64,000 nucleotides of DNA from assembly GCA_964645795.1 (NCBI GenBank), contig CAZYCL010000003.1:188290-252289 (forward strand). The letters run 5' to 3'. Source of the stretch: an uncultured Planctomycetales bacterium (GTDB taxonomy: Bacteria > Omnitrophota > Gorgyraeia > Gygaellales > Profunditerraquicolaceae). Shown one piece after another: positions 11,951-39,611 of this stretch. Made by a program: the position numbers and the translations under genes. Within the stretch, counting starts at the first letter, position 1. Each line of letters begins with the position of its first letter. The notes below the pieces were generated by a model. That model did not search any database and was not told the DNA's origin. It worked only from the letters and a program-made list of their open reading frames with translations.

Positions 11951-11969
11951 TACCAAAAGGAGAGGACAG

Positions 11970-13152: not shown

Positions 13153-13174
13153 AGCTGCTCGTAGGTATAGCATA

Positions 13175-13210: not shown

Positions 13211-13223
13211 AAAGGGGGCCTTC

Positions 13224-13508: not shown

Positions 13509-13517
13509 GGCCGGGGA

Positions 13518-13736
13518 ATGGCTCTTGATCCGAAATCCATACTTTCAAACCTCACTAATAGCCCGCCTTCTTTTACTTCCGGGGCCCGGGCAGATGCCTT
13601 TTCCGATGCTACAACCCGCGTTGATTACTCTACCGGCTCTTTTTCCGTCGGCGGCTCAAGTAACCTAAATACCCTTTTCTGGATAGCCGGGGCAATTGCC
13701 CTTGTTTTTATCTTAAAGGAGTTTTTTAAGAAATGA
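13518..13736 (+). CDS. Small membrane protein (C-terminal TM helix + basic tail)
   Basis: 72 aa; ...LFWIAGAIALVFILKEFFKK. Confidence 0.4.
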   Translation: MALDPKSILSNLTNSPPSFTSGARADAFSDATTRVDYSTGSFSVGGSSNLNTLFWIAGAIALVFILKEFFKK

Positions 13737-14530: not shown

Positions 14531-14534
14531 AACT

Positions 14535-15134: not shown

Positions 15135-15136
15135 AA

Positions 15137-15703
15137 ATGAGTGGAGCTTTTGGGGTAAATACCTTTAATTTTATAAAGTTGACAATGCAGGCGGCGGCTC
15201 CAGGAACGCCAGATTTAGGGGCGGTAATCTACGCAAAATCATCTTCGGCCCGGGTTGTTGATGGAGCTTATACAATAACGCCGGCATTTACCGACGGAAG
15301 CATCGCAAACCTTCTTGATGGAAATGTATCAACATACGCCCAAAATGTGAACGCCCTACCTCATACTTTTAAGGTCGACTTTGGCGCTGCCAGAAAAATT
15401 AATCGCTATGGATTCGGGAACTGGGATGCTAGCAACGGCGGCCAGCCGAAAACCTGGACTTTTGAGGGATCAAACAATGGCACAGATTGGACAGTAATAG
15501 AAACCCGGACAAACGAAGCCCAGCGGGCTAGTGGCGCGTCGTTCTATTTCGATATCGCCGAGCAGAATTACCGCTATTATCGCTGGGTTGTTACGGTAAC
15601 TTGGGATGCAACTTATATCGGCGGTGAGCTGTATTTGTATTCGCCGCGGACTGATTTTTTCGCAAAGAATGATGCTGGAACTGAAAAACAGCTAACACCA
15701 TAA
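15137..15703 (+). CDS. Discoidin/F5-8 type C (galactose-binding-like) domain protein; candidate receptor-binding or spike protein
   Basis: 188 aa; KVDFGAARKINRYGFGNW...WTFEGSNNGTDWTVIE...YRYYRWVVT typical of discoidin-domain carbohydrate-binding modules. Confidence 0.4.
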   Translation: MSGAFGVNTFNFIKLTMQAAAPGTPDLGAVIYAKSSSARVVDGAYTITPAFTDGSIANLLDGNVSTYAQNVNALPHTFKVDFGAARKINRYGFGNWDASNGGQPKTWTFEGSNNGTDWTVIETRTNEAQRASGASFYFDIAEQNYRYYRWVVTVTWDATYIGGELYLYSPRTDFFAKNDAGTEKQLTP

Positions 15704-24548: not shown

Positions 24549-25483
24549 TTTTTTAGCGGATGGTCGCGGTAATACAAATACAGCGTTGCCGTCGTAATGG
24601 TTATCAGGGCATCTACTATGAAATTTCCGACTAATATTCCCAAAAACACGACTACCAGGACAAACTCGGGGAACACCCTGTTTATCAGAAAAGGCGTACT
24701 GTGTTTGAGTATTGTTATGGGAACGTAACAAAGCATCAATGAAAAGATGATCACCACTGTCGGGAAAAACAGCCGGTAAAAGACAACGAAGGTCCTGTAG
24801 GCGGCTTTTATGATCCCGTTATTTTCATAAACGATAAGCGGGATCATGTAGATCAGCACTGACTGAATACCGAGGGCAAGCAGGAAATTAAGCACCGGCA
24901 GCATCGGCCCCAGCCACCACTGGGCGCCCAGCCAGATAAGGCGCACGTGCCCCACCGCGAAATAACGGGCGATGGTCCCCAGCAAGAATTTGGCTGAAAA
25001 ATAAAAGGTTGCGGTAACGATGAAGGTAACGATAAAAAGGTAAATATATTTCTTAAGGGCTTTGCCGAAGGCGTCTTTAAGCTTCGGGGCTTTGTTATGG
25101 TAAGCATCGGCGACCATATAAACGGTCGTGCCGGTAAGAAGCGAGCCGAAGACGACCGCCATGAACATGCGGGCCAGGGACATGAGCTTGTGGGTAAGAA
25201 GGAAATTATTGGGAAAATGCAGGAATGTCTCTCCCCAGATCGAGCGTATGGGCGGCCCAAGCAGGACTACAAAAGGCTGGCGGGGAGAGATATAGATGAT
25301 TAATAATGCCAGCAGCTCCAACACGCTGAACGCCACGAACGGCAGAAGAAGAACCGGGTACTTTCTTATACTGGCAGTGGCCAAGCTGAAGGCTTGATTC
25401 AAATACTTTAAACCGAATAGTTTAGGTTTTATCATATTTTTAGGGATTAATGAAACTTTGGCTAGGATTTTCAAGTATAACAC
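24545..25483 (-). CDS. Polytopic inner-membrane protein of unknown function, first gene of the TPR-HK-RR operon
   Basis: 312 aa with ~7 hydrophobic helices; stop overlaps the TPR gene start (ATGA). Confidence 0.5.
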   Translation of the reverse strand: MLYLKILAKVSLIPKNMIKPKLFGLKYLNQAFSLATASIRKYPVLLLPFVAFSVLELLALLIIYISPRQPFVVLLGPPIRSIWGETFLHFPNNFLLTHKLMSLARMFMAVVFGSLLTGTTVYMVADAYHNKAPKLKDAFGKALKKYIYLFIVTFIVTATFYFSAKFLLGTIARYFAVGHVRLIWLGAQWWLGPMLPVLNFLLALGIQSVLIYMIPLIVYENNGIIKAAYRTFVVFYRLFFPTVVIIFSLMLCYVPITILKHSTPFLINRVFPEFVLVVVFLGILVGNFIVDALITITTATLYLYYRDHPLKK

Positions 25484-25561: not shown

Positions 25562-28261
25562 TTAGCCGCTGGCAAAAGGCTTTATCTTGAAAAGGAGCTC
25601 CCTGACTGTGCGGGAATAGAATATATTGGTAGTGGCGCTTTCGGGGACGGATATCTTAAGCAGCTTCTGGATCTCAAATAGAAGCTCAAGCTTGCCAAGC
25701 GAATCAAGCCCAAGGTCCAACTCCAGGTTATCGTCAAGCCTGACAGCCCTGCCCAGACGCATTGACAAATACTCGATCACCGTTCTCGAGGCAGCGTCCC
25801 CGGCCTCCTCTTCTGGCTCTAACCCGGCCTTACCCTGCTGCTTGGCCGGATACGAAGGTGATTTGCACTCTCTGGCAAACCTCTCTGCAACCAGCTTTCT
25901 TTTGAGCTTCCCGAGAGCAGTGCGCGGCAGAGATGAGTTGCTTAAAAGAAACCCGTGGACACGCTTATGCTCGCTTAGCCCCTGTGAAAGCGCCTCCAGC
26001 TCCTTCTTAATGGCTACGTCGCTTCTTGCGTTCTCCGAAGGGACGATCACCGCTGCCAGCTGCTTGCTGGTCTCAAAGATGCCTTTCTTAAGCGACAAGA
26101 ATACGCAAGCCTCCTTGATAAGCCGGCTTGTCTGGTAGTGTTTTTCGATCTCTTCGGGGCTTACTTTCTTGCCGGAATCCAGCACGATCGTTTCATCCCT
26201 CCTGCCCAGCACAAAGAGAAACCCGTCCCTGTCGATGCAACCGGCATCTCCGGTGAGGAGCCAGCCGTTCTGCACGACTTTGCTTGAGTCTACCGGAGAC
26301 TGGAAGTAGCCGGCCATGATATTCAGGCCTTTGACCGCAATTTCCCCTACGCCTTTTTTATCAGGATTAAGGATAACCACATCCACATGCGGGATAGGCT
26401 TTCCAACAGAGCCTATCTTACAGGACTGCGGAGTATTCCAGGAAACTACCGGAGAGGCTTCCGTAAGGCCGTAACCCTCAAGGAGCGTAAAACCCCATTT
26501 ATAGAAGTCCTTTACGATATAACTCTCAAGGCTCGCCCCGCCGCTGACCATGAATCTCAGGCTGCTGCCGAAGATACGATGGATCTTGGCGAAGATACGT
26601 TTGGCGGGATTTAATCCAAACAGGCTTCTAACCAGCCAACAAACCTCTTCAGCCAGCTTAATGAACCCCCTGCTGATAAAAACCATCCTGCTAAGCCTGT
26701 CCTTTACCTGCCGGTGCAGAAGAGCGAATATCTGCGGCACGGCGGTAAAGATGGTCACCCTGGTTGCGGCGATACACTCGATAATACTATCAAGGTTCAT
26801 GGACGATGGAAAGCTTACTTTTGCTCCCGCAAGCAAGGGGAGGACGCAGTTTACCATAAAAGGATAGGGGTGATAAAACGGGAGCATCGAAATAAAGACG
26901 TCGTCAGCACGGCATAAGCCGGTATTTACTATTGAATTAAAGTTGGAGATGATGTTTTGCTGAGAAAGCATCACCAGCTTAGGGATGGTCTGAGAGGTAG
27001 CGGTAGTCCCCGAGGTATAAAAAAGCAGCGCCGTGTCATCTGCGTCCGGATAGCTTAATCCGAGGATGTCCTGAGCTAACATTTTTTGGATCTGCGCCTG
27101 CGCCTGGAAAGAATCAATAACCAGGTTTTCCGCGACCTTCTGGCCCTGTGAAGCCAGTTCCAAGAGGTTAGACAGGTTTTTTTCCTGACAGATCACCAGC
27201 CTCGGATAGCAAAGCCTTAGCCGCTGGTAAAGCTCTTCTTGCGTAAGCGCCGGGTCTATGGGCACAACCGCGCACTGATTATACTGCAGGGCAAGAAAGG
27301 CCTGGAGCCACTGCGGCGAGTTTTCAAGATAGATCACCACTCTATCTCTGGGCCTTATCCCTATACTATGTAAGTAGTTACCAAACTTAAGGCTGCTCAG
27401 ATAGAGGTCTGAAAATGTAAACTCTTCAAATACCTCCTCCCTCTTATATGCGGCTGCCGCCTTTTCTGGATTGAGCTTAGCGACGCCGGCAAATGCATTG
27501 AAGACCCCCGGTATAAGGTCAGAGGCAGCCAGCTCCACCTCATGCTTAGGCCAGAACTCGCTCTCCAGCCCTTCGAGAAAATACTTCTGGAAGAAATCCG
27601 GGAATTTCCTGCTGACGCTGTTTTCTATCTCGTTAAGCTTTGCCAGGTAGGGCTTGACCGGGCCGTAATAATCTATCTCGTCTCCGATGGGATGAAAAGT
27701 AAATCCGTGAAAACACAAAAGCTTCCAGAGCGACTCCTCCATGCAGGCAAACCAATAGTTGATCCCCAGGCGCTTGCAATCCTGGTACATCTCGCGGTAC
27801 AAACCGAAGGCCATTGGCCGCATACGTTGAGCAGGCCCCTGAGCCTGAGGGAGAGGAGGCTTCTCCTGGAAATCCGGCGAGTAGTAAAGACCGTCTGCGG
27901 CCCTCTTTCGGTACTCTTTGCTTATTACCAACCGCGATACTTCAGCCAGGCGGTTACGCGGCAGCTTAGCAGTGTCGATATTGAGCCTGCCGCGGTAATG
28001 CTCCTCTAAGGGAAAACCGAGGTTGGAGTTAAGGATAAGCCGGGCGGTCCCGACCAGGCCCTTGGCGTCCTCAATGGCGAACTGAAGCGAATGCGCGTCA
28101 TACTGGTCCTGCTCGATCCTCAACGGATAATCTTCGGGCTTGAGGAACCGGCACTCTTCGCAGTAGACCTTATAGCGCAGCTTGAATATCTCGCTTAAGA
28201 GCTCGGGCGAATCAGCCTTGCTGAAGCTAAACTCCGTATTCCCAATGAGTTCTTTATGCAT
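25562..28261 (-). CDS. Tri-domain fusion: exosortase-system-type N-acyl amino acid synthase (GNAT-like) + AMP-dependent acyl-CoA ligase + C-terminal acyl carrier protein domain (ATG 28261 with RBS ggaga)
   Basis: N-terminal ~270 aa autoinducer-synthase-like acyltransferase (LRYKVYCEECRFL); central AMP-binding domain (TSGTTATSQ..., GYGLTEASP); C-terminal LGLDSLGKLEL phosphopantetheine-attachment motif. Confidence 0.6.
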   Translation of the reverse strand: MHKELIGNTEFSFSKADSPELLSEIFKLRYKVYCEECRFLKPEDYPLRIEQDQYDAHSLQFAIEDAKGLVGTARLILNSNLGFPLEEHYRGRLNIDTAKLPRNRLAEVSRLVISKEYRKRAADGLYYSPDFQEKPPLPQAQGPAQRMRPMAFGLYREMYQDCKRLGINYWFACMEESLWKLLCFHGFTFHPIGDEIDYYGPVKPYLAKLNEIENSVSRKFPDFFQKYFLEGLESEFWPKHEVELAASDLIPGVFNAFAGVAKLNPEKAAAAYKREEVFEEFTFSDLYLSSLKFGNYLHSIGIRPRDRVVIYLENSPQWLQAFLALQYNQCAVVPIDPALTQEELYQRLRLCYPRLVICQEKNLSNLLELASQGQKVAENLVIDSFQAQAQIQKMLAQDILGLSYPDADDTALLFYTSGTTATSQTIPKLVMLSQQNIISNFNSIVNTGLCRADDVFISMLPFYHPYPFMVNCVLPLLAGAKVSFPSSMNLDSIIECIAATRVTIFTAVPQIFALLHRQVKDRLSRMVFISRGFIKLAEEVCWLVRSLFGLNPAKRIFAKIHRIFGSSLRFMVSGGASLESYIVKDFYKWGFTLLEGYGLTEASPVVSWNTPQSCKIGSVGKPIPHVDVVILNPDKKGVGEIAVKGLNIMAGYFQSPVDSSKVVQNGWLLTGDAGCIDRDGFLFVLGRRDETIVLDSGKKVSPEEIEKHYQTSRLIKEACVFLSLKKGIFETSKQLAAVIVPSENARSDVAIKKELEALSQGLSEHKRVHGFLLSNSSLPRTALGKLKRKLVAERFARECKSPSYPAKQQGKAGLEPEEEAGDAASRTVIEYLSMRLGRAVRLDDNLELDLGLDSLGKLELLFEIQKLLKISVPESATTNIFYSRTVRELLFKIKPFASG

Positions 28262-28319
28262 GCGTTCTCCGAATGCCCTCAGTTTAACACACCGACCGTA
28301 TCGAGTCAAATATTATAGA

Positions 28320-28352
28320 GGGACGGTTCTCAAAACAATTTAGAACTGTCCC
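28320..28352. repeat. REP-like palindrome (GGGACGGTTCT...AGAACTGTCCC) in a divergent intergenic region
   Basis: gggacggttctcaaaacaatttagaactgtccc. Confidence 0.4.
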
Positions 28353-28463
28353 CTTTCGAGTATTCGAGAGGGACACTTTTAGATTGTCTTGAGAAGCGTC
28401 CCTGTGGTTTACGCAGTTTTGTTGTTGACTGCTTCCGGTTAACTACTTATAATATTGTCTGTC

Positions 28464-29210
28464 ATGAGGATAGCAAAATTTATAATTATCTTCCTCCTGC
28501 TTCTTCCTCTCTCCTCTCAAGCCGGTCAGCTCAACGCCAAGGAGATGATCAGGCGCGCAGATGACCTTTTGCGCGGCGACACATCTTCAGGCACATACGA
28601 GATGAAAGTAACCACCCCTGCCTGGAGCCGAACGTTAAAACTTAACGCTATATCCAAAGACAAGAATAAAACATTCATCAAAATCCTCTCGCCGGCAAAA
28701 GAAGCCGGCATTACAACTCTTCGCGTCGACAATAATATGTGGAACTACCTGCCCAAGGTTGAAAGGACGATAAAAGTCCCCCCCTCGATGATGCTGGAGC
28801 CGTGGATGGGCAGCGACTTCTCTAACGACGACCTGGTCAAAGAAAGCAGCATCGTTAACGATTACGAGCATTCCATTGAAGCCGATGATGAAGTCGGCGG
28901 TGTACCGGCATACAAAATCCGGCTTATCCCAAAGCCTGATGCCGCGGTCACCTGGGGAAAGCTCTACTACTGGGTAAAGAAAGACGATAATACTCCCCTT
29001 AAAGAAGAGTTTTACGACGAGCACGGCAAGCTCATCAAAACCCTGGATTATTCCCAAATAAAGAAAATGTCCGACCGTAAGATCCCGACGCTCTGGGCCA
29101 TGCGCTCAAACGTCAAACCCGGTAATATTACTGTAATAAAAGTCCTAAATATAATCTATAATCAACCGATTGATGAAAACGTATTCAGCCTGCAGAACCT
29201 GAAAAAGTAG
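28464..29210 (+). CDS. LolA-like outer-membrane lipoprotein-sorting family protein (secreted); ATG 28464, the ORF-track TTG at 28455 is less likely
   Basis: Signal peptide IAKFIIIFLLLLPLSSQAG; beta-rich ~230 aa mature domain; genomic partner of the FtsX-type ABC permease. Confidence 0.5.
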   Translation: MRIAKFIIIFLLLLPLSSQAGQLNAKEMIRRADDLLRGDTSSGTYEMKVTTPAWSRTLKLNAISKDKNKTFIKILSPAKEAGITTLRVDNNMWNYLPKVERTIKVPPSMMLEPWMGSDFSNDDLVKESSIVNDYEHSIEADDEVGGVPAYKIRLIPKPDAAVTWGKLYYWVKKDDNTPLKEEFYDEHGKLIKTLDYSQIKKMSDRKIPTLWAMRSNVKPGNITVIKVLNIIYNQPIDENVFSLQNLKK

Positions 29211-29265: not shown

Positions 29266-30486
29266 ATGCTAATCTTTCTAAAAATAGCGCTGCGCAACAT
29301 TCTACGCAACAAATTCCGCAGCCTCCTTACGATAGCGGCCATTGCCATCGGCTTTGCCAGCCTGGTATTCATCCGCGCCTTTGTCGACGGCTCGCATTAC
29401 CAGATGATCGAAAACTACACCGACCTTCTCTCCGGGCATATCCAGATACACGCAAAAGGTTTTCAGGATGATATGTCCCTGGCCAAAAGCATACAAAACC
29501 CCGCGGCCATTCAACAAAGACTAAAAGGCATGGAAGGCGTAAGCGCCTCGTCAAAGCGCATAAAAGAGTTCGTGCTTGTCAGCAGCGCGCAGAATTCATC
29601 GGGCGTGCTGCTTTTAGGGGTGGAGCCTTTAAGCGAAGAGCGAGTAAGCAAGCTGCACAAACGCGTGCGCGAAGGAAAATTCCTTGATTCCGACGACCAG
29701 ATGGTCATAGGAAAAAAGCTGGCGCAGTCGCTTAAAGCCGGCCTCTTCGACAAGATCGTCATCATGGCCCAGGGCGCTGACGGCAGCCTTTGCAGCGGGG
29801 TGTATCGCATCTCGGGGCTGCTTGATACAGGCGCCGAAGAATTGGATAAAAACCTGGCGATAATCACTTTAAAAGCCGCACAGGAGATGCTGGTCATGGA
29901 CGCAGCGGCCTCGGAGATCGCCGTGCGCACCAAAGACGTAGAAAAAGCCGTCTTCTACGCGCAACTCATCAAAAAGGGCCTGAATGACCCAAGGCTTGAG
30001 ATATTAAGCTGGGATGAGATCTCCCCCATCATTATGCAGTGGGTGGAGTTTGACGTAGCCTTTATAAATATGATCCTATTCGTGGTATTGCTGGTAGTGG
30101 CGGCCGGGATACTCAATACCCTGATGATGGGGATATTGGAGCGCATACGCGAATTCGGGATAATGCTTGCGCTGGGGACAAAAAGACTCCAGATAATGCT
30201 TTTGGTAATAATGGAGTCCTGCATCCTTGGCCTATTAGGGCTTTTTATCGGAGCCATCGCAAGCGTTGCGCTCTCCGGTTACTTCGGGGCAAAAGGCGTA
30301 GATTTATCCAAATTCTCGACGGCGCTTAACAATTATTACACCGGCTCGGTGATCTATACCCGGCTAGACCCTTCGGCAATGACCGAATATGCGTTAGTGG
30401 TACTAGCTGCCAGCATACTGATAGCGATTTTGCCGGCATGGAAAGCGGCGAATTTGAAGCCGACTGAAGCGATTTATAAAATATAA
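29266..30486 (+). CDS. ABC transporter permease, FtsX/MacB/LolE-like (4 TM helices with a large periplasmic domain)
   Basis: 406 aa; N-terminal TM, ~230-aa periplasmic domain, C-terminal FtsX-type three-TM bundle. Confidence 0.7.
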   Translation: MLIFLKIALRNILRNKFRSLLTIAAIAIGFASLVFIRAFVDGSHYQMIENYTDLLSGHIQIHAKGFQDDMSLAKSIQNPAAIQQRLKGMEGVSASSKRIKEFVLVSSAQNSSGVLLLGVEPLSEERVSKLHKRVREGKFLDSDDQMVIGKKLAQSLKAGLFDKIVIMAQGADGSLCSGVYRISGLLDTGAEELDKNLAIITLKAAQEMLVMDAAASEIAVRTKDVEKAVFYAQLIKKGLNDPRLEILSWDEISPIIMQWVEFDVAFINMILFVVLLVVAAGILNTLMMGILERIREFGIMLALGTKRLQIMLLVIMESCILGLLGLFIGAIASVALSGYFGAKGVDLSKFSTALNNYYTGSVIYTRLDPSAMTEYALVVLAASILIAILPAWKAANLKPTEAIYKI

Positions 30487-31157
30487 TGGCATTGATCGAA
30501 ATTAAAGAGCTTACGAAGACTTACCAACAAAAAGGCTCGCCTTCTACGCAGGCCCTGCGCGGCATTGACCTGGCCATTGAGGAAGCTTCATTCCTGGCTA
30601 TAGCCGGGCCTTCCGGCTCAGGCAAAACCACTCTGCTTAACATGATCGGCTGCCTGGACAGGCCTGACTCCGGGTTCATCTCTATCGAAGGCGACGTCGT
30701 ATCCGACCTTTCTGCGCCCCGCCTGTCGGGATTCCGCCTTAACAAGATCGGATTTGTCTTTCAATCATACAACCTTTTCTATCAACTAACTGCGCTTGAG
30801 AATGTGGAGTACGTGATGCTGCTTCAGGGGGCCGGAGCCGATTTACGCGCAAAAAAAGCCATTGAGATGCTGGAAAAGGTCGGCCTCAAAGACCAGGCCT
30901 CAAAATACCCCGGAAAGCTAAGCGGCGGACAACAGCAAAGAGTAGCGGTAGCCCGCGCCCTCGCCTCCTCTCCCCGCATTATCCTGGCTGATGAGCCTAC
31001 GGCAAACCTGGATTCCGTGACCGCTGCGGGCCTCATTGATTTGATGAGAGAACTTAACCGCCAGATGAAGACCACCTTCATCTTCTCCACCCACGACAAG
31101 ATGGTGATGGATAAGGCCGAGCGGCTCGTTTTACTTAAGGATGGGAAAATTGCGTAG
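30486..31157 (+). CDS. ABC transporter ATP-binding protein (LolD/MacB-type)
   Basis: Walker A GPSGSGKTT, signature LSGGQQQRV, Walker B ILADEPT; 1-nt start/stop overlap with the permease gene. Confidence 0.85.
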   Translation: MALIEIKELTKTYQQKGSPSTQALRGIDLAIEEASFLAIAGPSGSGKTTLLNMIGCLDRPDSGFISIEGDVVSDLSAPRLSGFRLNKIGFVFQSYNLFYQLTALENVEYVMLLQGAGADLRAKKAIEMLEKVGLKDQASKYPGKLSGGQQQRVAVARALASSPRIILADEPTANLDSVTAAGLIDLMRELNRQMKTTFIFSTHDKMVMDKAERLVLLKDGKIA

Positions 31158-32322
31158 AGGCTGTCCCGTCATTGGCAATAGCTTCCTCTCTTTGCTTCTG
31201 GTTGCAGTATTTTTACCGCTTGCCCTGCCCGCAGCGTCTGCCGAAGACAAACTCAACTTCTCCGGCTCCTACAAGAACCTCTTTACCAGCTCCAAAGCTG
31301 CCTGCGACAACCAGACTCTCTATGCCGTTACCCAGCGCCTAAGGCTGCAGATCGAGCCGCAGCTTACGGACGAACTTTCCGCTCTTATCGCTTATGACAA
31401 CGAGTTTATACTAAGCGACTTCTCACGGACAGCTGATTTTGGACCGGTACGCCAAAAAAACCAGAAAACTTTGAACTTCTGGGACGCGGACAAGGTAATG
31501 GCTGACCGCAGCCACTTCTACTGGAAGACCGGTTTATACCGCGCCTACCTTAAGTACGCCTCGAAATCCCTGCACTGCACTGCCGGAAAACTGGCCATTG
31601 ACTGGTCAAGAATGAAGTTCTATGGCCCTCTGGATATCTTTAACGCCGTCTCACCTCTTGATATCGAGCGTGATGAGCGGATTGGCGTGGATGCCGTTAA
31701 CTTGGAGTATTTTCCAACGGGATTTAGCGCCATACAGCTTATCTATATACCGCATAAAAACGATGAGCGTTCAGGCATAGCGCTTAAGGCAGGGCAGAAA
31801 ATCAAAGATTACGACCTCGGTATAAATGTATCTTATTATAAAAAAGAGCTTATGGCAGGCGCTTCTTTTGACGGCTATATTAAAGATGCCGGTCTGCGCG
31901 GCGAGGTAAGCTTCCATAGGCCGGATGACCGCAGGGAGTTTATCCGGGCTGCGATCGGCTCGGACTACAACTTCAATCCCAAGCTCTACGGGGTATTCGA
32001 ATACTTCTTTAACGGCGGCAGGGCGGCTGATGCCGCACAGTTTTCAGGCTCATACGAGTACTCGCGCCAGAGGCTTACGCTTTTTAAGCATATACTCTCG
32101 GCAGGCCTGGAGTACGCCCTGTCGGGTATCACCAAACTATGCGGCTATCTCTTTTACGACTGCCAGAAAAAAAGCTTTTTCTATAATCCTGAAATACGCT
32201 ATAATGTCTTGAGTAACCTCGATTTTACATGCGGCGCCCAGCTTTTCTCGGGCAGCGATACTCAGAGCGAATTTGGCGGCTACAACAACCTGTACTACGC
32301 CCAATTAAAGTTTTATTTCTAA
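31141..32322 (+). CDS. Putative outer-membrane beta-barrel protein
   Basis: Signal peptide ...PLALPAASA; alternating amphipathic beta pattern; C-terminal ...YAQLKFYF with terminal Phe. Confidence 0.4.
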   Translation: MGKLRRGCPVIGNSFLSLLLVAVFLPLALPAASAEDKLNFSGSYKNLFTSSKAACDNQTLYAVTQRLRLQIEPQLTDELSALIAYDNEFILSDFSRTADFGPVRQKNQKTLNFWDADKVMADRSHFYWKTGLYRAYLKYASKSLHCTAGKLAIDWSRMKFYGPLDIFNAVSPLDIERDERIGVDAVNLEYFPTGFSAIQLIYIPHKNDERSGIALKAGQKIKDYDLGINVSYYKKELMAGASFDGYIKDAGLRGEVSFHRPDDRREFIRAAIGSDYNFNPKLYGVFEYFFNGGRAADAAQFSGSYEYSRQRLTLFKHILSAGLEYALSGITKLCGYLFYDCQKKSFFYNPEIRYNVLSNLDFTCGAQLFSGSDTQSEFGGYNNLYYAQLKFYF

Positions 32323-32351: not shown

Positions 32352-33860
32352 GTGACTTGGGATGTTTTTGAGCCGCGTGCTGCGGCGAGAAAATATCCCA
32401 AGGCAGGACCGTTTCCGAAAATTAACATGAACGGACTTTCAAAGCTGATCGAACAGTACAAGCGCCGCAAGATCATCCAGCTGCTTAAAAACTCCTCTCC
32501 TGAGGCCATCGAGCAGATGGGCACGCGCGCCCTCATCCCTGCCTTCCGCCGCGCAGCCACCAAAATGCCTGCCTACAAGAAGATATTAAGCGAAAATAAT
32601 ATCGATCACAGACAAGTCACCGACGAGAAAAGCTTCAAGAAAACAGTTCCTGTGCTGGATAAACAATCGGTCTTCGGCAGGTTTGAAGATATCGAAGAGC
32701 TCTGCGTAGGCGGCACCATAAAGAATATGAAGCTGGCCATGACCAGCTCCGGTTTTTCCGGATGCTTCTCTTACGGCATAAACACGGTTTACAACCAGCG
32801 CAATATCGCCAAATCCATCGATACCGCCCTTGAATACGTCTTTGACATAAGCAGAAAAAAGACCTTTATCGTCAACTGCCTGCCAATGGGCGTAAAGGTC
32901 TCCACCTCTCTTATGCTTTCAGAGAACAGCGTGCGCGAAGACATGGCCCTGGCCATTATCAAGAAATTCTCCCCTAAGTTTGACCAAACCGTAGTTGTTG
33001 CCGACCCCAACTATCTTAAGAAGCTGGCTGAAGACGCCAATGAGAAGAAGCTCATAGACTGGAACAAGCTTAACATAAACTTTATTTCCGGCGAAGACTG
33101 GTTCTCAGAGTCTTTCCGCTCATACCTGGCGCATCTTATTGAGATTGACCTGGATAATCCTGGCGAGCGCATGATCGGCACCACTATGGGTGTGGCGGAG
33201 CTTGATCTCAACCTTTTCCATGAATCAAAGTTCACTATCCAGATACGGCGAAATGTCCAGCAAAATCAAGCACTTAGGAGAGAGTTGTTCGGGGATGACT
33301 GCGTGGTCGCACCGATTATCTTCCATTACTATCCTCATCGCATCATTCTGGAAGCCCTTCCCGAAGACTCAAACGATAAAGAACTGGTCTTCTCTATGCT
33401 TAGCCCCCATATGCTTGTGCCGCTTATGCGTTATAACTCCAAGGACCGCGGCTGGATATTCAGCTACAACCAAATGAAGGGCATTTTAGCCAAACACGGC
33501 CTCCAGGATATCACACCCGATATTAAGCTGCCCTGCGTGGCCGTAGGAGGCAGAAAAGACCGTTTTTTAATGGCTAGTGGGCATACCCCGGTTTACCCGG
33601 AGGAGATTAAACAAGGCCTTTATGAAGATTTTGAGGCAGCAGCCAGGACCACCGGATACTTCTTTCTTAACCCCGCGGACGGTGGCAGGCTGGAAGTTCA
33701 GCTAAAAGACGGGATCTTTGTCAGTGAAGAACTGAGGCACCGCTTCGAGAGATGCTGCTTCAAATACACCCGCACATCCCTTCCTCTCATTCTCTATTCA
33801 TACCGAGACTTCCCGCACGGGATGGTCCTTGACTACGAACGCAAGTTCAAACATATTTAA
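32352..33860 (+). CDS. Phenylacetate-CoA ligase-like (CapK/PaaK family) adenylate-forming enzyme; true start possibly ATG ~32426
   Basis: LAMTSSGFSGCFSYGIN resembles the PaaK P-loop (T/SSGTTG); ~480 aa typical of CapK-like proteins in polysaccharide loci. Confidence 0.45.
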   Translation: MTWDVFEPRAAARKYPKAGPFPKINMNGLSKLIEQYKRRKIIQLLKNSSPEAIEQMGTRALIPAFRRAATKMPAYKKILSENNIDHRQVTDEKSFKKTVPVLDKQSVFGRFEDIEELCVGGTIKNMKLAMTSSGFSGCFSYGINTVYNQRNIAKSIDTALEYVFDISRKKTFIVNCLPMGVKVSTSLMLSENSVREDMALAIIKKFSPKFDQTVVVADPNYLKKLAEDANEKKLIDWNKLNINFISGEDWFSESFRSYLAHLIEIDLDNPGERMIGTTMGVAELDLNLFHESKFTIQIRRNVQQNQALRRELFGDDCVVAPIIFHYYPHRIILEALPEDSNDKELVFSMLSPHMLVPLMRYNSKDRGWIFSYNQMKGILAKHGLQDITPDIKLPCVAVGGRKDRFLMASGHTPVYPEEIKQGLYEDFEAAARTTGYFFLNPADGGRLEVQLKDGIFVSEELRHRFERCCFKYTRTSLPLILYSYRDFPHGMVLDYERKFKHI

Positions 33861-33976: not shown

Positions 33977-34543
33977 TTACATAACCCTCTTGCGCAGCTT
34001 AAAGCCGAACAACCCGGCCAGGCCGAGGCCTAAAAGCGAGATGCTTGCGGGCTCGGGGACTACGCTATTATCAGTAGTAGTGGTGATACTGCCGTAATTA
34101 AACCACCACAATGTATAAAGATTCTCTCCTCGCCTGACACCATCCATCTGAATATGGTCATTGCTTACGGGGAAATACCCATCGCCAACGGGTGCCCACA
34201 TTCCGTTGGAAGGTTGATCGCTAAGAAGATAGTATGTCTGACCGGCATCAAGGCCCCAGGACACATCCGCAAAATATGAAGTATTTCCTGCGGGAGAAGA
34301 AAGGGTTTCCAGAATCGAAAAGCTGTCATCCATTAACCAAATAGTATCCGCGCTGCCCTGATTATAAAAAACGAAGCTATCCAGGGTAACATCCATTAAA
34401 GCGGTCAGCTGCATCCCCGCATCATCCCAGTTGCCAATAGGGAAAGGCAGTGACGGGCCATTCATTACCTGCGTATCCGCAAAAACCTGGCCGCAGCACA
34501 TACCGACCAATAAAAATGCCAAAAGAACTACTTTTACTTTCAC
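33977..34543 (-). CDS. PEP-CTERM sorting-domain protein (secreted, exosortase substrate) 8 of 8
   Basis: N-terminal signal peptide; C-terminal VPEPASISLLGLGLAGLFGFKLRKR. Confidence 0.7.
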   Translation of the reverse strand: MKVKVVLLAFLLVGMCCGQVFADTQVMNGPSLPFPIGNWDDAGMQLTALMDVTLDSFVFYNQGSADTIWLMDDSFSILETLSSPAGNTSYFADVSWGLDAGQTYYLLSDQPSNGMWAPVGDGYFPVSNDHIQMDGVRRGENLYTLWWFNYGSITTTTDNSVVPEPASISLLGLGLAGLFGFKLRKRVM

Positions 34544-35145
34544 TTTCTCCTCCTTTTCATTAATCCGAATAAACCCAATCCCAAAAGCGAAAGGCTTGAC
34601 GGCTCGGGGACAACTCCTGCTTCGCTATACAGCCTAAGGCCAAAATCATAATTCTCAGCAACATAAAATCCAATACCTGGTTGCCGGCCGTAATACTGCA
34701 GCGAATCCGGAGGAGTCGCGCTTCCAGGCATTGCTCCACCGCTTGCACTGTCAGTCTCAAAGAAAACCCAGTAATCCGTATCCTTGCTTAATTGAAAATC
34801 CACATCAAAACTCCTCCAGGCCGCCGGCTGAAGGCTTGTTAATGTTTCGGTATAGCTGTATAAAAGCGTATCCGGAAGCAAATCAAGATCTGAATCAGTG
34901 TAAATAGTAGTCCTATACTCTCCCGCTCCGTTTGAATAAACATTCATCCAGCCCTCTATCTTATCTATATTATAATCCTGGCTGAAATTTACCCTCTTGC
35001 CGAGCCATTGCCCGGAATTAAGGCTCCAGCCATAGCTGGAATCCGATCCAGGACCGGTATCATAGATAAGCGCCGCCCAACATGCGGAGCTTATAAATAC
35101 GGTAAATACCATAACGCTCATGACAAAAAACAACTTCTTAACCAT
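34540..35145 (-). CDS. PEP-CTERM sorting-domain protein 7 of 8
   Basis: Signal peptide; C-terminal VVPEPSSLSLLGLGLFGLMKRRRK. Confidence 0.75.
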   Translation of the reverse strand: MVKKLFFVMSVMVFTVFISSACWAALIYDTGPGSDSSYGWSLNSGQWLGKRVNFSQDYNIDKIEGWMNVYSNGAGEYRTTIYTDSDLDLLPDTLLYSYTETLTSLQPAAWRSFDVDFQLSKDTDYWVFFETDSASGGAMPGSATPPDSLQYYGRQPGIGFYVAENYDFGLRLYSEAGVVPEPSSLSLLGLGLFGLMKRRRK

Positions 35146-35815
35146 TCCGCCTCCTCCTTTTTGTTGCTAATCCAAGCAATCCCAGCCCCAAAAGCGAAAG
35201 GCTCGCGGGTTCGGGGACAACGCCTGTTGTTTCTCCGAATACTATGTCATCTACAGCGTAACTGCTGGAATAAGTGACGTATCCGGTAACGGAAAACCTG
35301 ATCCGGGAAATGTCATTACCGCTGAGCGTCACAACATCCTTGCCCCAATTAGGGTAAGTCCCGGGGTTGGTCACCAAAACACTGTCCAGCACCGTCTGGT
35401 GATCATCGGCAAGGGCAAAAACAGTTATCACCTGGTCCCATGCCCAAAAGATAGACGCGGTTACTTCTCCGCTGTAAGGGGCGATAAAATCCATGCATAT
35501 GTCGTTTACGTATTCGCTAAAGCCTATAGCGTGCCGGTTAACCAGGCAGTTCGGCGAAGAGCTAAACTCAGGATCCGGATAATAACTGATCCAATCTAAA
35601 GTACTTGGCGTACTTGGGAATTCGCCCCAAATCTCGTAACCGGAAAATAAAACCCCGTAGGCAGCGTATTGGTCGGTAATGTAATCCCATGCGGGGACCG
35701 GGTCTCCGTTGGGGAAGACATCGAAGTTTATGGTAGTGGCTTTAGCGGGAGAAAAACTAAATAGAATAGAAAAAGACAGGATTGCTGCGAGTAGTAAGAA
35801 ACAAGGAGCCTTCAT
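35138..35815 (-). CDS. PEP-CTERM sorting-domain protein 6 of 8
   Basis: Signal peptide; C-terminal VPEPASLSLLGLGLLGLATKRRRR. Confidence 0.75.
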   Translation of the reverse strand: MKAPCFLLLAAILSFSILFSFSPAKATTINFDVFPNGDPVPAWDYITDQYAAYGVLFSGYEIWGEFPSTPSTLDWISYYPDPEFSSSPNCLVNRHAIGFSEYVNDICMDFIAPYSGEVTASIFWAWDQVITVFALADDHQTVLDSVLVTNPGTYPNWGKDVVTLSGNDISRIRFSVTGYVTYSSSYAVDDIVFGETTGVVPEPASLSLLGLGLLGLATKRRRRNG

Positions 35816-35965
35816 ACCCTGGGTTGCTTAATCCCCCCTAGTAGCAAAAATAGTTTAAGAAAAGGCGCCCGCTCTTTTTTTGTAAAGACCGAGCGCCTTT
35901 TTCTTTTTGGTTAAGAGCTCTTTTCCACAAAAGAAAAGGGCGCTTAATCTTATATTGCTATAAGA

Positions 35966-36766
35966 CTAAGCAGCTCTTCTCCTTCTTAATGCTAAACCGG
36001 CTAACCCTAAGCCTAAAAGGCTCATAGTAGCTGGTTCAGGTATTACGTTGGCGATGGTCGGGTCATTGAAGCTCTGCGACCATAGCTGTGATTCATTCTC
36101 AGGCGTAACGGGGCTGTTCAACGGAGGCTGAACGCCAAATGACATAAACAGGTCGTTACCCGACCCGTTAATATCACCGCCATCGAGATATGGGGCATAC
36201 CATCCTCCCGTGATATCTCCATAGCCATTACCCTTACCGGTTGCCGGAGCAGTGGTAGAAGTAACATCCTGTAATACTGTGGTAGTATTGTCTCCCGGAA
36301 CAAAACCAGGGACGAAATTACCGGACAGCCACAGCGAGCTACCCACGATATCCGTAACGGTATAATAACCGTTAGCAGCATATCTTCCACCAGCGCCTTG
36401 ACCAGTGTTATACTCACCGGTATGGCTACCAGCCGGAACGTAGTAAATATCAAAGCTACCGCCGGACTGATAAACATAGAAACCCATGCTGCCACCAGGA
36501 GCATAAGCAGTATCAGTTAGGCCATAGATCATAGCGTACATACGCTCACCGCTTGCCAATGGCGACCACAACTGCGAGGATCCACCTAGAGTCTCAATAC
36601 TGGTTATTGAAGCGATACCCCATGTCTCACCGCCGAGATAGCCGGATGACATAGTGTAGCCTGACATCTTTAGCTGTATAGGACCGGTGTACCCGCCCAA
36701 ATCAAAGGCGAATGCCGGAGATACGGCTACCGCTAACAACACAACTGCTAGTAATAACTTCTTCAT
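35966..36766 (-). CDS. PEP-CTERM sorting-domain protein 5 of 8 (Gly/Tyr-rich)
   Basis: Signal peptide; C-terminal IPEPATMSLLGLGLAGLALRRRRAA. Confidence 0.75.
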   Translation of the reverse strand: MKKLLLAVVLLAVAVSPAFAFDLGGYTGPIQLKMSGYTMSSGYLGGETWGIASITSIETLGGSSQLWSPLASGERMYAMIYGLTDTAYAPGGSMGFYVYQSGGSFDIYYVPAGSHTGEYNTGQGAGGRYAANGYYTVTDIVGSSLWLSGNFVPGFVPGDNTTTVLQDVTSTTAPATGKGNGYGDITGGWYAPYLDGGDINGSGNDLFMSFGVQPPLNSPVTPENESQLWSQSFNDPTIANVIPEPATMSLLGLGLAGLALRRRRAA

Positions 36767-36791
36767 TCTTGTTTCACCCCCCTTCTCTTTA

Positions 36792-37568
36792 TTATTTAAT
36801 AAACCTCTTTCTTCCTAATAAACCCAAAAGGCCTAAGCCCAGAAGCGACATGGTTGCCGGTTCGGGAACAACGCGCTGATCGGCTTCCTGCTGTGCCGCG
36901 AAAAACTCATTCTGCCTGAATATATAGCGAGTATTGGAGTTATCGCCAGATCCCCATTCAACGGTCATCATGGTAGCCCTGACCTCTCCATCGCCAAAAG
37001 GATAGATTATATAAATAGGTTTATCGGTGCCCTGGTCCAAGATTGTTTCGGTTCCCGCAAGCAGATCAGTAAAATATCCGTGCGAAGTGTAGTTCCATGC
37101 CTGGAACTGCGCTTCGGTAAGCTCTCCATACGGACCGTCAACTATCGGGCTTAATGGATCGGTGACGTTAACAGCCTGAGTATACTCCGCAACCCTATTT
37201 ACGCCTCCCGGCAGGTAATTCGGAGACTCCCATCCCGGATTTGCATCTTCCCAGCCCCAAAGGCAAGAGTGGGCTACCAAGATACCGCCGTTCTGAACGT
37301 AGCTATTGATCAGGCCAAAGTTGGTCGCCACATTATCATAGTAGGACTGCGGCTGATCAGAAGCATAGACTACGAACTGGTAATCGCTAAGGGTTGTGGC
37401 AGCTATCTGGCTTGATGCAATCTTGGTAAAAGATATCCCTATATCACCTAAGGTTTCGGAGTTAGAATTATACCCCCAAGGAAGGATGTCCTCGATCAAC
37501 AAGGCATCCGCATAAACAGCTGAAACAGAAAACGCCAATATTGCTAATACTAAAACCAGCTTACGCAT
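36792..37568 (-). CDS. PEP-CTERM sorting-domain protein 4 of 8
   Basis: Signal peptide; C-terminal VPEPATMSLLGLGLLGLLGRKR. Confidence 0.75.
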   Translation of the reverse strand: MRKLVLVLAILAFSVSAVYADALLIEDILPWGYNSNSETLGDIGISFTKIASSQIAATTLSDYQFVVYASDQPQSYYDNVATNFGLINSYVQNGGILVAHSCLWGWEDANPGWESPNYLPGGVNRVAEYTQAVNVTDPLSPIVDGPYGELTEAQFQAWNYTSHGYFTDLLAGTETILDQGTDKPIYIIYPFGDGEVRATMMTVEWGSGDNSNTRYIFRQNEFFAAQQEADQRVVPEPATMSLLGLGLLGLLGRKRFIK

Positions 37569-37585
37569 CCATGCTCTCCTTTCTG

Positions 37586-38278
37586 TTACTGTTTACGCCT
37601 TTTTAATCCTGCTAACCCAAGTAACCCTAAGCCCAGAAGCGACATAGTTGCAGGCTCGGGCACGGCATTCTGTACGTCACCTCTTATCTCAGCCAGCTTC
37701 TCGCTGTAAACAACGGTGCCTGCTTCATCCCTGGCAAAGATCAGAGCAAAATCATGATAAGGATCATAGTCTCCTGCGGCAAAAGCCCAATCAAAAGAAA
37801 CCGAATCCCCCGGATAGAGGACCACGTTCGGGAACAAAACGATCGAGCCATCGGTACCGCCAAATTCATCTACGTTAGTACTGTCATTACTGACCATGCG
37901 CATCATATAACTACCTTCGGTAGGGTTATAAACATCGCCGTGATAGGAAAACCCGGATGTAACTGCCTGGGCATATCCATCGCTGTCATACTGGTTATTA
38001 TCGCCTTCAAACCCCTCGAATATATCTGCGGCGTCAATGCTGCTATTAAACCAGACATTGTCTAGAAACATCCACGAATCAGCAGCTGTGTCGCCGTAAT
38101 TGCTTACTACGAAACCAAATGAACCGCTTATCAGCTGCTCGTCATCTCCGAGGGTGTAAGAATAATGCTGCCATCCGGTATGGCCGTAATCCGGCACGCT
38201 TATGGTGGCGTAAGCATTACCTAAGGATAAAAACGCGCTCGCTAACAGTGCTGCTGCCAACGCAAAACATTTGCTCAT
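37586..38278 (-). CDS. PEP-CTERM sorting-domain protein 3 of 8
   Basis: Signal peptide; C-terminal VPEPATMSLLGLGLLGLAGLKRRKQ. Confidence 0.75.
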   Translation of the reverse strand: MSKCFALAAALLASAFLSLGNAYATISVPDYGHTGWQHYSYTLGDDEQLISGSFGFVVSNYGDTAADSWMFLDNVWFNSSIDAADIFEGFEGDNNQYDSDGYAQAVTSGFSYHGDVYNPTEGSYMMRMVSNDSTNVDEFGGTDGSIVLFPNVVLYPGDSVSFDWAFAAGDYDPYHDFALIFARDEAGTVVYSEKLAEIRGDVQNAVPEPATMSLLGLGLLGLAGLKRRKQ

Positions 38279-38979
38279 CTTCTCCTCCTCTTTGCTGCCA
38301 ATCCTAATAGCCCTAACCCCAGAAGCGACAGGCTCGCCGGCTCAGGCGTTACTGCCCCTCCTATATAATCATTGGCACAGGTAGCGCCGCCATAGAAGAA
38401 CTGAAAACCGTGCTGCATGCCAGGCAAATAGCTTTCGTCCAATATCAGGCGTATATCGTAATCGGCAATACCGTTATTCTGATTGAGTGAAGGGTCATTG
38501 AGTATCCAGCTTAAGAAATTATCGCTGATAAGTTGCCCTGCCTCGATTGAAACAATCTGATTTTGATGATAAACGTAGCCGCCGGGCGGAGCAAAATCGT
38601 TGGAAATATACCAATCGGTCACGCTATAAAGGGAGCCTGCAGTAAACCCATCATGGTCCCTGAAGGCCACGCCGTACTCAAACACGCCGTCACCGTTAAA
38701 ATCCAAACCCAAATCCGCAGGCATGGTATTCCAGCTGCCCACGGTCTTTCCTGCCTGAGGATAATTAGTGAAGATATCAAAGGTAATATTGCCTGCATTA
38801 CGGGTTATATCAACACTGTAAAGCTCAAAAACAGCCGCTCCCACCCTATCGTAATTATCCGGGTTAGCCCCGCCTCCGGGCCAGGCATTGTTGACCGGGT
38901 CAACAAAAGTATAGGCAAAGGCAGAGGCCGGCATGATTACCATCGCCAGCACTAATCCTAATAAAAGGCTTCTCTTCAT
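38275..38979 (-). CDS. PEP-CTERM sorting-domain protein 2 of 8
   Basis: Signal peptide; C-terminal TPEPASLSLLGLGLLGLAAKRRRR. Confidence 0.75.
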   Translation of the reverse strand: MKRSLLLGLVLAMVIMPASAFAYTFVDPVNNAWPGGGANPDNYDRVGAAVFELYSVDITRNAGNITFDIFTNYPQAGKTVGSWNTMPADLGLDFNGDGVFEYGVAFRDHDGFTAGSLYSVTDWYISNDFAPPGGYVYHQNQIVSIEAGQLISDNFLSWILNDPSLNQNNGIADYDIRLILDESYLPGMQHGFQFFYGGATCANDYIGGAVTPEPASLSLLGLGLLGLAAKRRRR

Positions 38980-38981
38980 CT

Positions 38982-39611
38982 TTATTTAGCCTTCCTTCTG
39001 CGCAGCATTATCCCGAACAATCCGAGGCCCATCAAAGACAGGCTTGCCGGTTCAGGCACAGCTGCTGTGGTTATTTGAAGTTTAATCCCATTGTTCCAGT
39101 AATGGCAATCAGGATCGAACCCCAGGCCAAAATAATCGTTAGCGGCAAAGCTCTCAAGAAGCCCGAGCTGGGTAGGATTGAACAAATAGGTAAAATCCTC
39201 CGGATAACCTGTGCCGTTAGTATCGGTGTAAGAGGTCAAAAACGGCGAAAGCCCCCAGTTATCTCCTCCAACCTGCCCGTCGTACCAGCGCTTTGCGGTG
39301 CTGGAGTAAGTAGGCTTGGTGTTTGTCCCTATGATTGTGCCGCCGGTCTTAAATGGATCGTCCAAAAGATGGATATAAAGTATATTTAAATTGTTGTCCC
39401 AGTTATCTATATCATCAATAGTAAGCCTGGCGCTGACTATTTTCTCATTAGCGGGGATCACCCAGTTGATAAACCAACCGTAATAATAACTATGATCCAG
39501 GTCCTGCATATCTACAGGCTTTGGCTCAAAGGTAAAAGTAGTCATAGCGAAGGCGGGAACGGCTGTCAGAATTACTGCCGAGATAACTGCCAAAAGCATG
39601 AGCTTTTTCAT
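38982..39611 (-). CDS. PEP-CTERM sorting-domain protein 1 of 8
   Basis: Signal peptide; C-terminal VPEPASLSLMGLGLFGIMLRRRKAK. Confidence 0.75.
   Translation of the reverse strand: MKKLMLLAVISAVILTAVPAFAMTTFTFEPKPVDMQDLDHSYYYGWFINWVIPANEKIVSARLTIDDIDNWDNNLNILYIHLLDDPFKTGGTIIGTNTKPTYSSTAKRWYDGQVGGDNWGLSPFLTSYTDTNGTGYPEDFTYLFNPTQLGLLESFAANDYFGLGFDPDCHYWNNGIKLQITTAAVPEPASLSLMGLGLFGIMLRRRKAK

Follow-up and report, generated by a model that had tools for sequence, protein, structure and literature searches.

A rare gene fusion in an exosortase locus that unites a predicted N-acyl amino acid synthase with a dedicated ligase and acyl carrier

[quoted passage not shown] We found that the fusion is genuine but rare, and we propose, with a probability of roughly 0.65, that it makes, without help from other enzymes, an N-acyl amino acid lipid that is then exported. 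Domains were assigned by profile searches with Pfam and NCBIfam, scored against curated cutoffs, giving the following architecture:

25562..28261, minus strand: whole fusion gene, NAS - fatty-acid ligase - ACP, 899 aa plus stop
27587..28237, minus strand: NAS domain, aa 9-225 (TIGR03694, Pfam FeeM and Acetyltransf_5)
27482..27586, minus strand: inter-domain linker, aa 226-260, the former gene boundary by comparison with stand-alone NAS C-termini
25865..27481, minus strand: predicted AMP-forming fatty-acid ligase, aa 261-799, ElbD/ACSL-like type (AMP-binding and AMP-binding_C_3)
25634..25780, minus strand: acyl carrier (PP-binding) domain, aa 828-876, phosphopantetheine site Ser854 (codon 25700-25702)

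A genuine but rare three-domain protein

The longest form of the open reading frame (ORF) spans 25562-28309 on the minus strand, with a TTG start and 915 aa, while an ATG at 28261 with GGAG 8 nt 5' of the start codon gives 899 aa plus stop (25562-28261). A sequence-only reading of this DNA had placed the protein at exactly these latter coordinates, and they match the ATG-started ORF, in which a reading-frame check revealed no internal stops. The order that it had claimed, from acyltransferase through AMP-ligase to ACP, was confirmed by the Pfam and NCBIfam domain boundaries. The catalytic signatures are all kept, namely Glu107 (AEVSRL), GYGLTE, TGD, the A10 lysine (GKLKR) and Ser854 (GLDSL).

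The same 899-aa protein was called on two independent Logan assemblies and one NCBI contig at 100% identity, and diverged full-length fused homologues with no internal stop were found on three unrelated contigs (P0002, 54% identity; P0003, 47%; P0004, 46%). A word-indexed search of 5.8 billion proteins recovered NAS and ligase domains combined in four clusters only. HMMER was also run exhaustively against 1.84 billion cluster representatives, where just one of the best 150 matches was full-length; the other 149 spanned only aa 230-899, mostly starting at about aa 250. The 120 closest relatives of the NAS domain were all stand-alone proteins of 224-266 aa, with Candidatus Omnitrophota making up most of the named ones. 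Four further candidates, some with a fourth PlsC domain (L006, L012, L017 and L034), were rejected as fusions, as their tblastn high-scoring segments bridge in-frame stop codons, leaving P0001-P0004 as the only true fusions. The literature that we searched held no report of a NAS-ligase-ACP fusion, in which a GNAT-type N-acyltransferase is joined to a ligase and a carrier of its own.

The N-terminal part of the protein belongs to no unrelated family. The domain at aa 9-225 passed TIGR03694 (exosort_acyl) with 188.8 bits against a curated cutoff of 111.95, covering profile positions 6-231 of 241, and was also matched by Pfam Acetyltransf_5 (PF13444, 55.5 bits) and FeeM (42.5 bits). Exosortase and PEP-CTERM genes lie in the same window, the genomic linkage looked for in TIGR03694 members, and the fusion protein is a member of this family by every feature examined. 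An AlphaFold2 model of the domain (pLDDT 87.8), searched with Foldseek, was closest to TofI (3p2h, E = 2.6e-9) and FeeM (2g0b, E = 6.8e-9; TM(target) 0.69-0.75), followed by BjaI and LasI; as modelled, the domain has a FeeM/LuxI-type GNAT fold. A profile of the NAS domain run against PDB sequences did not reach FeeM (best E = 0.1). We examined Pfam Autoind_synth (PF00765) for a LuxI-type acyl-homoserine lactone (AHL) synthase and rejected this identity by the PF00765 threshold, the window protein giving no match at E <= 0.1 and P0004 reaching 16.2 bits where 24 are required; the likeness to LuxI is limited to the fold.

Residues E107, S109 and R110 are invariant across 47 NAS homologues, and Glu107 is also present in all four fused proteins. 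By motif position, Glu107 is the putative catalytic residue, equivalent to FeeM Glu95 and Nas354 Glu103. The characterised exosortase-linked family members described by Craig et al. in 2011 reportedly gave N-acyl amino acids, as told in papers citing that work. In Nas354, the glutamate equivalent to Glu107 is required (PMC4897644). FeeM, the LuxI-type AHL synthases, NAS and OlsB all take acyl-ACP as donor (PMC11631085), and the exosortase-linked NAS family yields N-acyl amino acids; with E. coli as host, its Neisseria meningitidis member forms N-(3-hydroxyacyl) derivatives of ornithine and lysine (PMC9762135). We predict that the NAS domain of the fusion makes an N-acyl amino acid whose acyl chain is long.

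The remainder of the protein holds the ligase and the carrier. AMP-binding covers aa 261-653 (251.6 bits) and AMP-binding_C_3 covers aa 689-799 (28.9 bits); the best NCBIfam models for the ligase are long-chain fatty-acid ligases (242 bits), and its A4 region reads LPFYHPYPF, of the fatty-acid-ligase type. NCBIfam Aas models matched at 131-150 bits, the Aas cutoffs being 1221 and 1349. When the whole fusion protein was searched against PDB sequences, ANL-family enzymes (adenylate-forming ligases) were the only matches. The carrier motif LGLDSLG, which holds Ser854, does not vary among the fused proteins and also occurs in the split A-ACP relatives that we inspected, and the protein ends 23 residues past the carrier domain.

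The top non-fused matches all aligned to aa 250-897 at 30-42% identity, and the homologous didomains of the ElbD kind range over 28-42% (E from ~1e-157 to ~1e-49). The nearest kin (35-42% identity) are proteins of ~650 aa made of an adenylating ligase and a carrier (A-ACP), A-ACP-PlsC proteins of ~900 aa, and reductase-A-ACP-PlsC proteins of ~1500 aa from Myxococcota; their Pfam content is AMP-binding and PP-binding, with or without Acyltransferase and NAD_binding_4. The last of these architectures is that of ElbD, an ether-lipid enzyme of Myxococcus whose acyl-CoA synthetase (ACS) and ACP activities have been confirmed in vitro according to a review, which also notes that ElbD-like proteins without the reductase occur in other phyla (PMC9131029). 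The fatty acyl reductase domain (PF07993) had no match in the fusion protein, whose N-terminus is instead occupied by the NAS domain. Judged by sequence, the ligase-carrier half is an ElbD-type ligase-carrier didomain, and the ligase substrate is most probably a fatty acid.

A further comparison overturned one part of the sequence-only reading, which had seen the fusion as a merger of three genes from proteobacterial XrtA loci. The ligase failed TIGR03098, the exosortase A-associated acyl-CoA ligase model, with 144.1 bits against a cutoff of 592.35. A genuine TIGR03098 ligase in a betaproteobacterial locus (L053), encoded 4.7 kb away from a stand-alone NAS, scored 727 bits and shares only 21.5% identity with the window domain. 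On this score and identity, we ruled out the ligase as the XrtA-associated enzyme.

Split counterparts and the origin of the fusion

We scanned an alignment of the NAS domain over one genome per GTDB species, yielding 79 loci. In the closest of these, a stand-alone NAS gene is followed by an A-ACP gene on the same strand, in genomes labelled Omnitrophota (mostly), 'Planctomycetia', 'Deltaproteobacteria' or Patescibacteria. The proposed comparison with split versions in proteobacterial XrtA loci thus had a mixed outcome: split counterparts do exist, but the pair is NAS and A-ACP(-PlsC), mostly in Omnitrophota-labelled genomes, and not a set of XrtA genes. NAS and A-ACP(-PlsC) are adjacent on the same strand with a spacer of 2-30 nt in at least 13 related loci, and in L006 the junction reads TAG CTT ATG, in the same frame.

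NAS is followed by A-ACP-PlsC in seven loci (L007, L009, L011, L012, L014, L017 and L034; for example, L012 10001-13432), where the PlsC domain matches PF01553 at 75-95 bits with the motifs NHVSFLD and FPEGQRS. Two loci have NAS followed by A-ACP without PlsC (L006 and L008), and the fused NAS-A-ACP form is found only in the window, L003, L004 (= L021) and L005. Each of the seven loci with PlsC brings together N- and O-acyltransferases with a fatty-acid ligase and a carrier, a set that resembles a self-contained, ornithine-lipid-like route to aminolipids in candidate phyla. PlsC-like sequence (PF01553) was absent across the window in a tblastn search with the L012 PlsC domain, and absent from all scanned ORFs. 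A second NAS paralogue lies just upstream in many split loci of the clade, including four of the seven with PlsC; the window contains one NAS domain, and no second paralogue was seen there, in the other fused loci or in L006.

Stand-alone NAS proteins end in ...GLExE(F/Y)xPK, and at this point the fused proteins run on with a non-conserved linker of 10-14 aa, after which the conserved ligase start, GIFxxF, follows. In a neighbour-joining tree of the A-ACP region, built without support values, the four fused proteins fall into a single clade surrounded by split forms. These observations are consistent with a single fusion by loss of the stop codon between adjacent NAS and A-ACP genes; in this simplest history, the fusion would have arisen in a sub-lineage already without the PlsC domain.

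Predicted pathway and competing explanations

The sequence-only reading had taken the domain order to imply an assembly line, and this interpretation gained support: the signatures are kept, the ligase-carrier kin are of the ElbD-type ACS-ACP kind, and the two halves are adjacent in sister genomes. We propose that the central AMP-forming ligase would adenylate a free long-chain fatty acid and load it onto the phosphopantetheine arm attached at Ser854, in the carrier of the same polypeptide (in cis), and that the FeeM/OlsB-type NAS domain would then pass the acyl group from the carrier to the amino group of a cytoplasmic amino acid. The product would be an N-acyl amino acid, i.e., a lyso-aminolipid. 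A neighbouring PaaK-fold ligase would probably process this product and may activate its carboxylate for further coupling, and a MacB-type ABC transporter, a LolA-like carrier and a putative outer-membrane protein would carry it out of the cell. Control of expression would fall to the sigma-54 two-component system encoded next to the gene, within an exosortase/PEP-CTERM/exopolysaccharide (EPS) surface programme. The genes concerned, together with others directly flanking the fusion, are as follows:

20083-21093, minus strand: PocR-GAF protein (profile matches)
21090-22493, minus strand: sigma-54-dependent response regulator (PEP_resp_reg 405.9 bits, below the 502.6 cutoff)
22486-23667, minus strand: GAF histidine kinase (profile matches)
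23664-24731, minus strand: TPR/YbgF-like protein (profile matches)
24545..25483, minus strand: multi-pass membrane protein, 312 aa, hydrophobic throughout, with no Pfam/NCBIfam match
28455-29210, plus strand: LolA_like periplasmic protein (Pfam LolA_like 189 bits; signal peptide)
29266-30486, plus strand: MacB/FtsX-type permease (MacB_PCD and FtsX; LolCE-like models below cutoffs)
30486-31157, plus strand: ABC ATPase (ABC_tran; LolD-like models below cutoffs)
31141..32322, plus strand: secreted 393-aa protein, putative outer-membrane beta-barrel (signal-peptide-like N-terminus, C-terminal ...KFYF)
32427..33860, plus strand: PaaK-fold adenylate-forming enzyme by fold match, ~477 aa from Met26 (ORF 32352-33860, 502 aa)

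The exporter block is divergent from the fusion gene and accompanies it in L003, L004, L005 and most split loci; in L001, a contig identical to the window, the first exporter gene stands at the contig end. The 393-aa protein matched no Pfam/NCBIfam family, is conserved in the cluster and is a putative outer-membrane beta-barrel. The fusion gene heads a conserved same-strand run, with rpoN just beyond the run on the opposite strand. A homologue of the 312-aa membrane protein lies directly downstream of NAS/A-ACP in 12 loci (L003, L006-L014, L017 and L034) and is missing from L004 and L005, and the synteny of the regulatory block (20083..24731) is kept in L003, L006, L007, L010-L014 and L017. 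A scan of the window for sigma-54 promoters returned 17 matches, compared with 28.7 expected by chance, which is no enrichment, with none upstream of the fusion gene. The best match of the -24/-12 type, TGGCATGGGAATTGCT at 40637-40652 (minus strand, 1 mismatch), lies upstream of the priming sugar transferase and PEP-CTERM array. Between the divergent operons there is an inverted repeat (28319-28403) with 34-nt arms that are 85% complementary and 17 nt apart; its sequence is not kept in L003-L006.

For the PaaK-fold enzyme, Pfam and NCBIfam searches and a phmmer search against the PDB gave no match. Its AlphaFold2 model (pLDDT 91) matched PaaK1 (2y27), BT_0428, NatL2, AjiA1 and ClxA in a fold search (E ~1e-19, TM 0.67-0.76), by which we assign the modelled protein to the PaaK family of adenylate-forming enzymes and predict it to be cytoplasmic. 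Homologues are ~475 aa long, some being labelled phenylacetate-CoA ligase or F390 synthetase by their source. Such a homologue adjoins NAS in at least 20 loci, and is a conserved neighbour of exosortase-linked NAS in Omnitrophota-like genomes, with Proteobacteria also included (e.g., L018 10886-12340, L038 4883-6298 and L046-L053), and the gene lies immediately 3' of a stand-alone NAS in Sneathiellales, Rokubacteria, Undibacterium, Acidovorax and other Proteobacteria. The pairing of NAS with a PaaK-like gene is far commoner than the fusion, and it was absent from the literature searched.

Several points weigh against the proposed pathway. It is built on sequence, model and gene-context comparison for all the fused proteins, from which we infer cis loading, an amino acid as acceptor, product export and the mode of regulation. 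The divergent genes are putative lipid-export genes by their neighbourhood, as is the probable role of the PaaK-like enzyme in the pathway. The carrier domain is marginal in the window copy, with PP-binding at 20.9 bits against a cutoff of 20.8; P0003 and P0004 score higher here, at 25-33 bits. In the window protein and P0002, the ligase's A3 P-loop (aa 414-427, 26980-27021 minus strand) reads TSGTTATSQTIPK, a 4-residue insertion and a Gly to Ala change relative to the canonical TSGTTGLPK of P0003. The window showed no phosphopantetheinyl transferase. In E. coli, stand-alone NAS enzymes function with housekeeping acyl-ACP (PMC4897644), by which a dedicated carrier is not strictly needed. Finally, the acceptor amino acid is not readable from the sequence. 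An ornithine- or lysine-type headgroup is a reasonable guess and no more, because an exosortase-annotated NAS makes N-acyl-ornithine and -lysine (PMC9762135) and sister loci pair NAS with PlsC.

The same chemistry could be directed to another amine acceptor, such as a polyamine, an amino sugar, a lipid-linked EPS precursor or S-adenosylmethionine, the last giving an AHL-like signal. The AHL synthase TofI is the best fold match of the NAS domain, marginally ahead of FeeM, and the domain retains ExDxxD and R...ExSR residues that we take to be those of the LuxI family. The polysaccharide deacetylase and the numerous glycosyltransferases of this EPS/surface locus also speak for such an acceptor. 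We nevertheless consider a different acceptor fairly unlikely, as TIGR03694 was passed while Autoind_synth was not matched, no LuxR-type receptor was seen in the cluster, and the characterised exosortase-linked family members gave N-acyl amino acids (PMC9762135).

A second explanation would dispense with any hand-over between the two halves: the carrier would feed another acyltransferase or a membrane-lipid pathway, the NAS domain would use acyl-ACP derived from fatty-acid synthase, and the fusion would serve co-expression only. In most sister loci the A-ACP is fused to the O-acyltransferase PlsC and not to NAS, showing that such a carrier can serve another transferase, and the activity of stand-alone NAS enzymes on E. 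coli acyl-ACP (PMC4897644) points the same way. However, tblastn found no PlsC-like domain in the window to which the carrier could deliver, NAS and A-ACP directly adjoin each other throughout this clade, and the fusion has been kept across homologues of 46-54% identity, all of which makes independent halves an unlikely arrangement.

It is very improbable that the protein follows the logic of a nonribosomal peptide synthetase (NRPS), in which an amino acid would be adenylated, tethered to the carrier and then N-acylated by the NAS domain. The adenylation-thiolation arrangement would suit this scheme, and the amino-acid adenylation model TIGR01733 does match at 140.8 bits; this is far under its cutoff of 317.4, which it failed, and below the fatty-acid ligase models. 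The A4 region is without the FDxS aspartate by which NRPS domains hold the alpha-amino group, the nearest kin are ElbD-like lipid enzymes, and there is no condensation or thioesterase domain to free a tethered product. As for a sequencing frameshift or a stop codon lost in one assembly, two genes just 2-30 nt apart and sometimes in frame in neighbouring genomes would let one base error mimic a fusion, but such an artefact is effectively refuted by the identical 899-aa protein from two independent read sets and an NCBI contig and by three more fused homologues from unrelated samples, whose linkers have diverged yet are uninterrupted.

The exosortase locus and relation to known systems

The locus holds genes for the exosortase, EpsI and eight PEP-CTERM proteins, all within 14 kb:

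33977..39611, minus strand: eight tandem paralogous small PEP-CTERM proteins, 188-266 aa (C-terminal PEP-CTERM family model matches, 8/8)
40901-41521, minus strand: EpsI (EpsI_fam 105.5 bits, cutoff 42.8)
41525-42340, minus strand: exosortase (8TM_EpsH 169.7, cutoff 105.55), a gene separate from EpsI

The generic sorting-signal model TIGR02595 was listed at 26-28 bits (cutoff 16) for four of the eight PEP-CTERM proteins. The XrtA-specific model scored 186.7 against 208, the best partial match being XrtW at 194 against 425, and XrtA-type accessories (ATPase, tyrosine kinase, chain-length determinant and response regulator) all scored under equivalog cutoffs. By these scores, the locus appears to hold a divergent exosortase system with no assigned class. 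The fused gene of L004 and L005 directly adjoins exosortase and EpsI. We found nothing relevant on PEP-CTERM systems in Omnitrophota in the literature searched.

It is conceivable, though we regard it as quite unlikely, that the lipid of this cluster is itself the exosortase acceptor rather than a signalling surfactant. By analogy with sortase and lipid II, an amine-bearing lipid of the N-acyl-ornithine/-lysine type, perhaps elaborated by the PaaK-like enzyme and brought to the outer membrane by the MacB-type transporter, the LolA-like carrier and the putative outer-membrane protein, would offer its free amine as the nucleophile at PEP-CTERM cleavage, and the eight PEP-CTERM proteins would become lipid-anchored at the cell surface. 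Four observations are consistent with such a role: linkage between NAS and exosortase recurs in many phyla, the exporter invariably accompanies NAS within this clade, L004 and L005 have exosortase and EpsI directly next to the fused gene, and the N-acyl-ornithine/-lysine of the exosortase-annotated NAS has a free side-chain amine (PMC9762135).

Some features of the wider window stand apart from the fusion. The eight-gene PEP-CTERM array, located between the lipid/export cluster and the exosortase, is unusually dense. A priming sugar transferase lies between the array and the exosortase side of the locus, in a minus-strand block (39624-62875), and a low-GC block (0.35-0.43) at 42-58 kb holds glycosyltransferases, a polysaccharide deacetylase, an O-antigen-ligase-like protein and a flippase. 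Within this EPS block, a 1065-aa ORF (44152-47349, minus strand) had zero NCBIfam matches. At the other end of the window, the ORF at 12301-13152 matched the N- and C-terminal domains of the PM2-type double-jelly-roll 'Viral coat protein P2' and the ORF at 10715-11353 matched a HerA/FtsK-type ATPase, which suggests a small corticovirus-like prophage at ~9500-15700 (plus strand). This region adjoins lexA (4630-5229) and dinB (5773-6936), and GC dips to 0.39 at 16-18 kb.

Compared with known systems, the window NAS shares with the TIGR03694 family the hidden Markov model match, the FeeM/LuxI-type fold, the catalytic glutamate and the exosortase/PEP-CTERM/EPS locus. It differs in being covalently joined to its own ligase and carrier, whereas family members use housekeeping acyl-ACP in E. 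coli (PMC4897644). NAS-PilZ fusions (Nas343/Nas354) are also distinct, as they join NAS to a regulatory cyclic-di-GMP-binding domain instead of to a ligase and carrier that supply its substrate. The ligase-carrier didomain is homologous to that of ElbD from Myxococcus xanthus and of ElbD-like A-ACP-PlsC proteins, and the proposed logic is that of ElbD, in which a fatty acid is activated, the in-cis carrier is loaded and the acyl group is handed to an acyltransferase of the same protein (PMC9131029). In the fusion, however, the transferase is an N-terminal GNAT-type N-acyltransferase, as opposed to the C-terminal PlsC/AGPAT O-acyltransferase of the ElbD-like proteins; unlike ElbD, the fusion has neither reductase nor PlsC, and its predicted product is an amide lipid rather than a glycerolipid or ether lipid.

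OlsB belongs to the same N-acyltransferase family (PF13444) and also uses acyl-ACP, and the sister loci with NAS and A-ACP-PlsC hold both the N- and the O-acyltransferase types of the two-step pathway of OlsB (PF13444) and OlsA (PF01553) (PMC11631085). An O-acyltransferase for the second acyl chain (PF01553 or PF19576) was found in the window neither by the PlsC tblastn search nor among the scanned ORFs, and the window hence encodes at most the first (lyso) step. Known aminolipid pathways are without a dedicated ligase or carrier, and OlsF fuses two transferases, not a transferase and a ligase. The E. coli enzyme Aas (2-acyl-glycerophosphoethanolamine acyltransferase / acyl-ACP synthetase) likewise fuses an acyltransferase to a carrier-charging AMP-forming enzyme; its transferase is of the PlsC type and ACP acts in trans.

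The proteobacterial XrtA acyl module (TIGR03098, TIGR03099 and TIGR03100/03101) also places an AMP-forming ligase near TIGR03694 in an exosortase locus, as seen in L053, where the ORFs picked gave no matches to the TIGR03100/03101 hydrolases. The window differs from this module in that its ligase fails TIGR03098, no TIGR03099 decarboxylase homologue was found in the window, and no hydrolase was found; it is a non-orthologous solution. The absence of hydrolases that the sequence-only reading had pointed out holds to the extent that alpha/beta-hydrolase models had no match among the ORFs scanned across 243-62875 (a 277-aa ORF at 62917-63750 and several short ORFs lay outside the scan). It does not represent a loss, because the XrtA-associated acyl module was never present here. 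The fusion is not a member of TIGR03098, the NRPS loading modules or the LuxI synthases; its enzyme chemistry is conventional, and what is new is the specific domain combination rather than the type of enzyme. In broad terms it would work as Aas, ElbD or OlsF do, as a lipid enzyme of several domains that links the activation or carriage of an acyl group with its transfer.

Exosortase/PEP-CTERM systems occur widely among environmental bacteria, and the fusion, though limited to four sequence clusters among billions of proteins, bears on what NAS contributes to these systems and on the target to which exosortase attaches its substrates. It provides Rosetta-stone evidence that, in this lineage at least, a dedicated ElbD-type ligase-carrier feeds NAS in place of the housekeeping fatty-acid synthase, and the surrounding cluster points to an exported lipid. 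The PaaK-fold ligase, which travels with NAS even in Proteobacteria, is a new candidate gene in tractable organisms such as Methylomonas and Zoogloea; in Methylomonas LW13, a NAS mutant is reported to lack the polysaccharide band (PMC11072679). With the whole predicted reaction in one soluble 899-aa protein, the fusion could be expressed and assayed independently of its host, which is useful as the organisms are uncultured. The possibility that the lipid is the exosortase acceptor would be of high interest if true.

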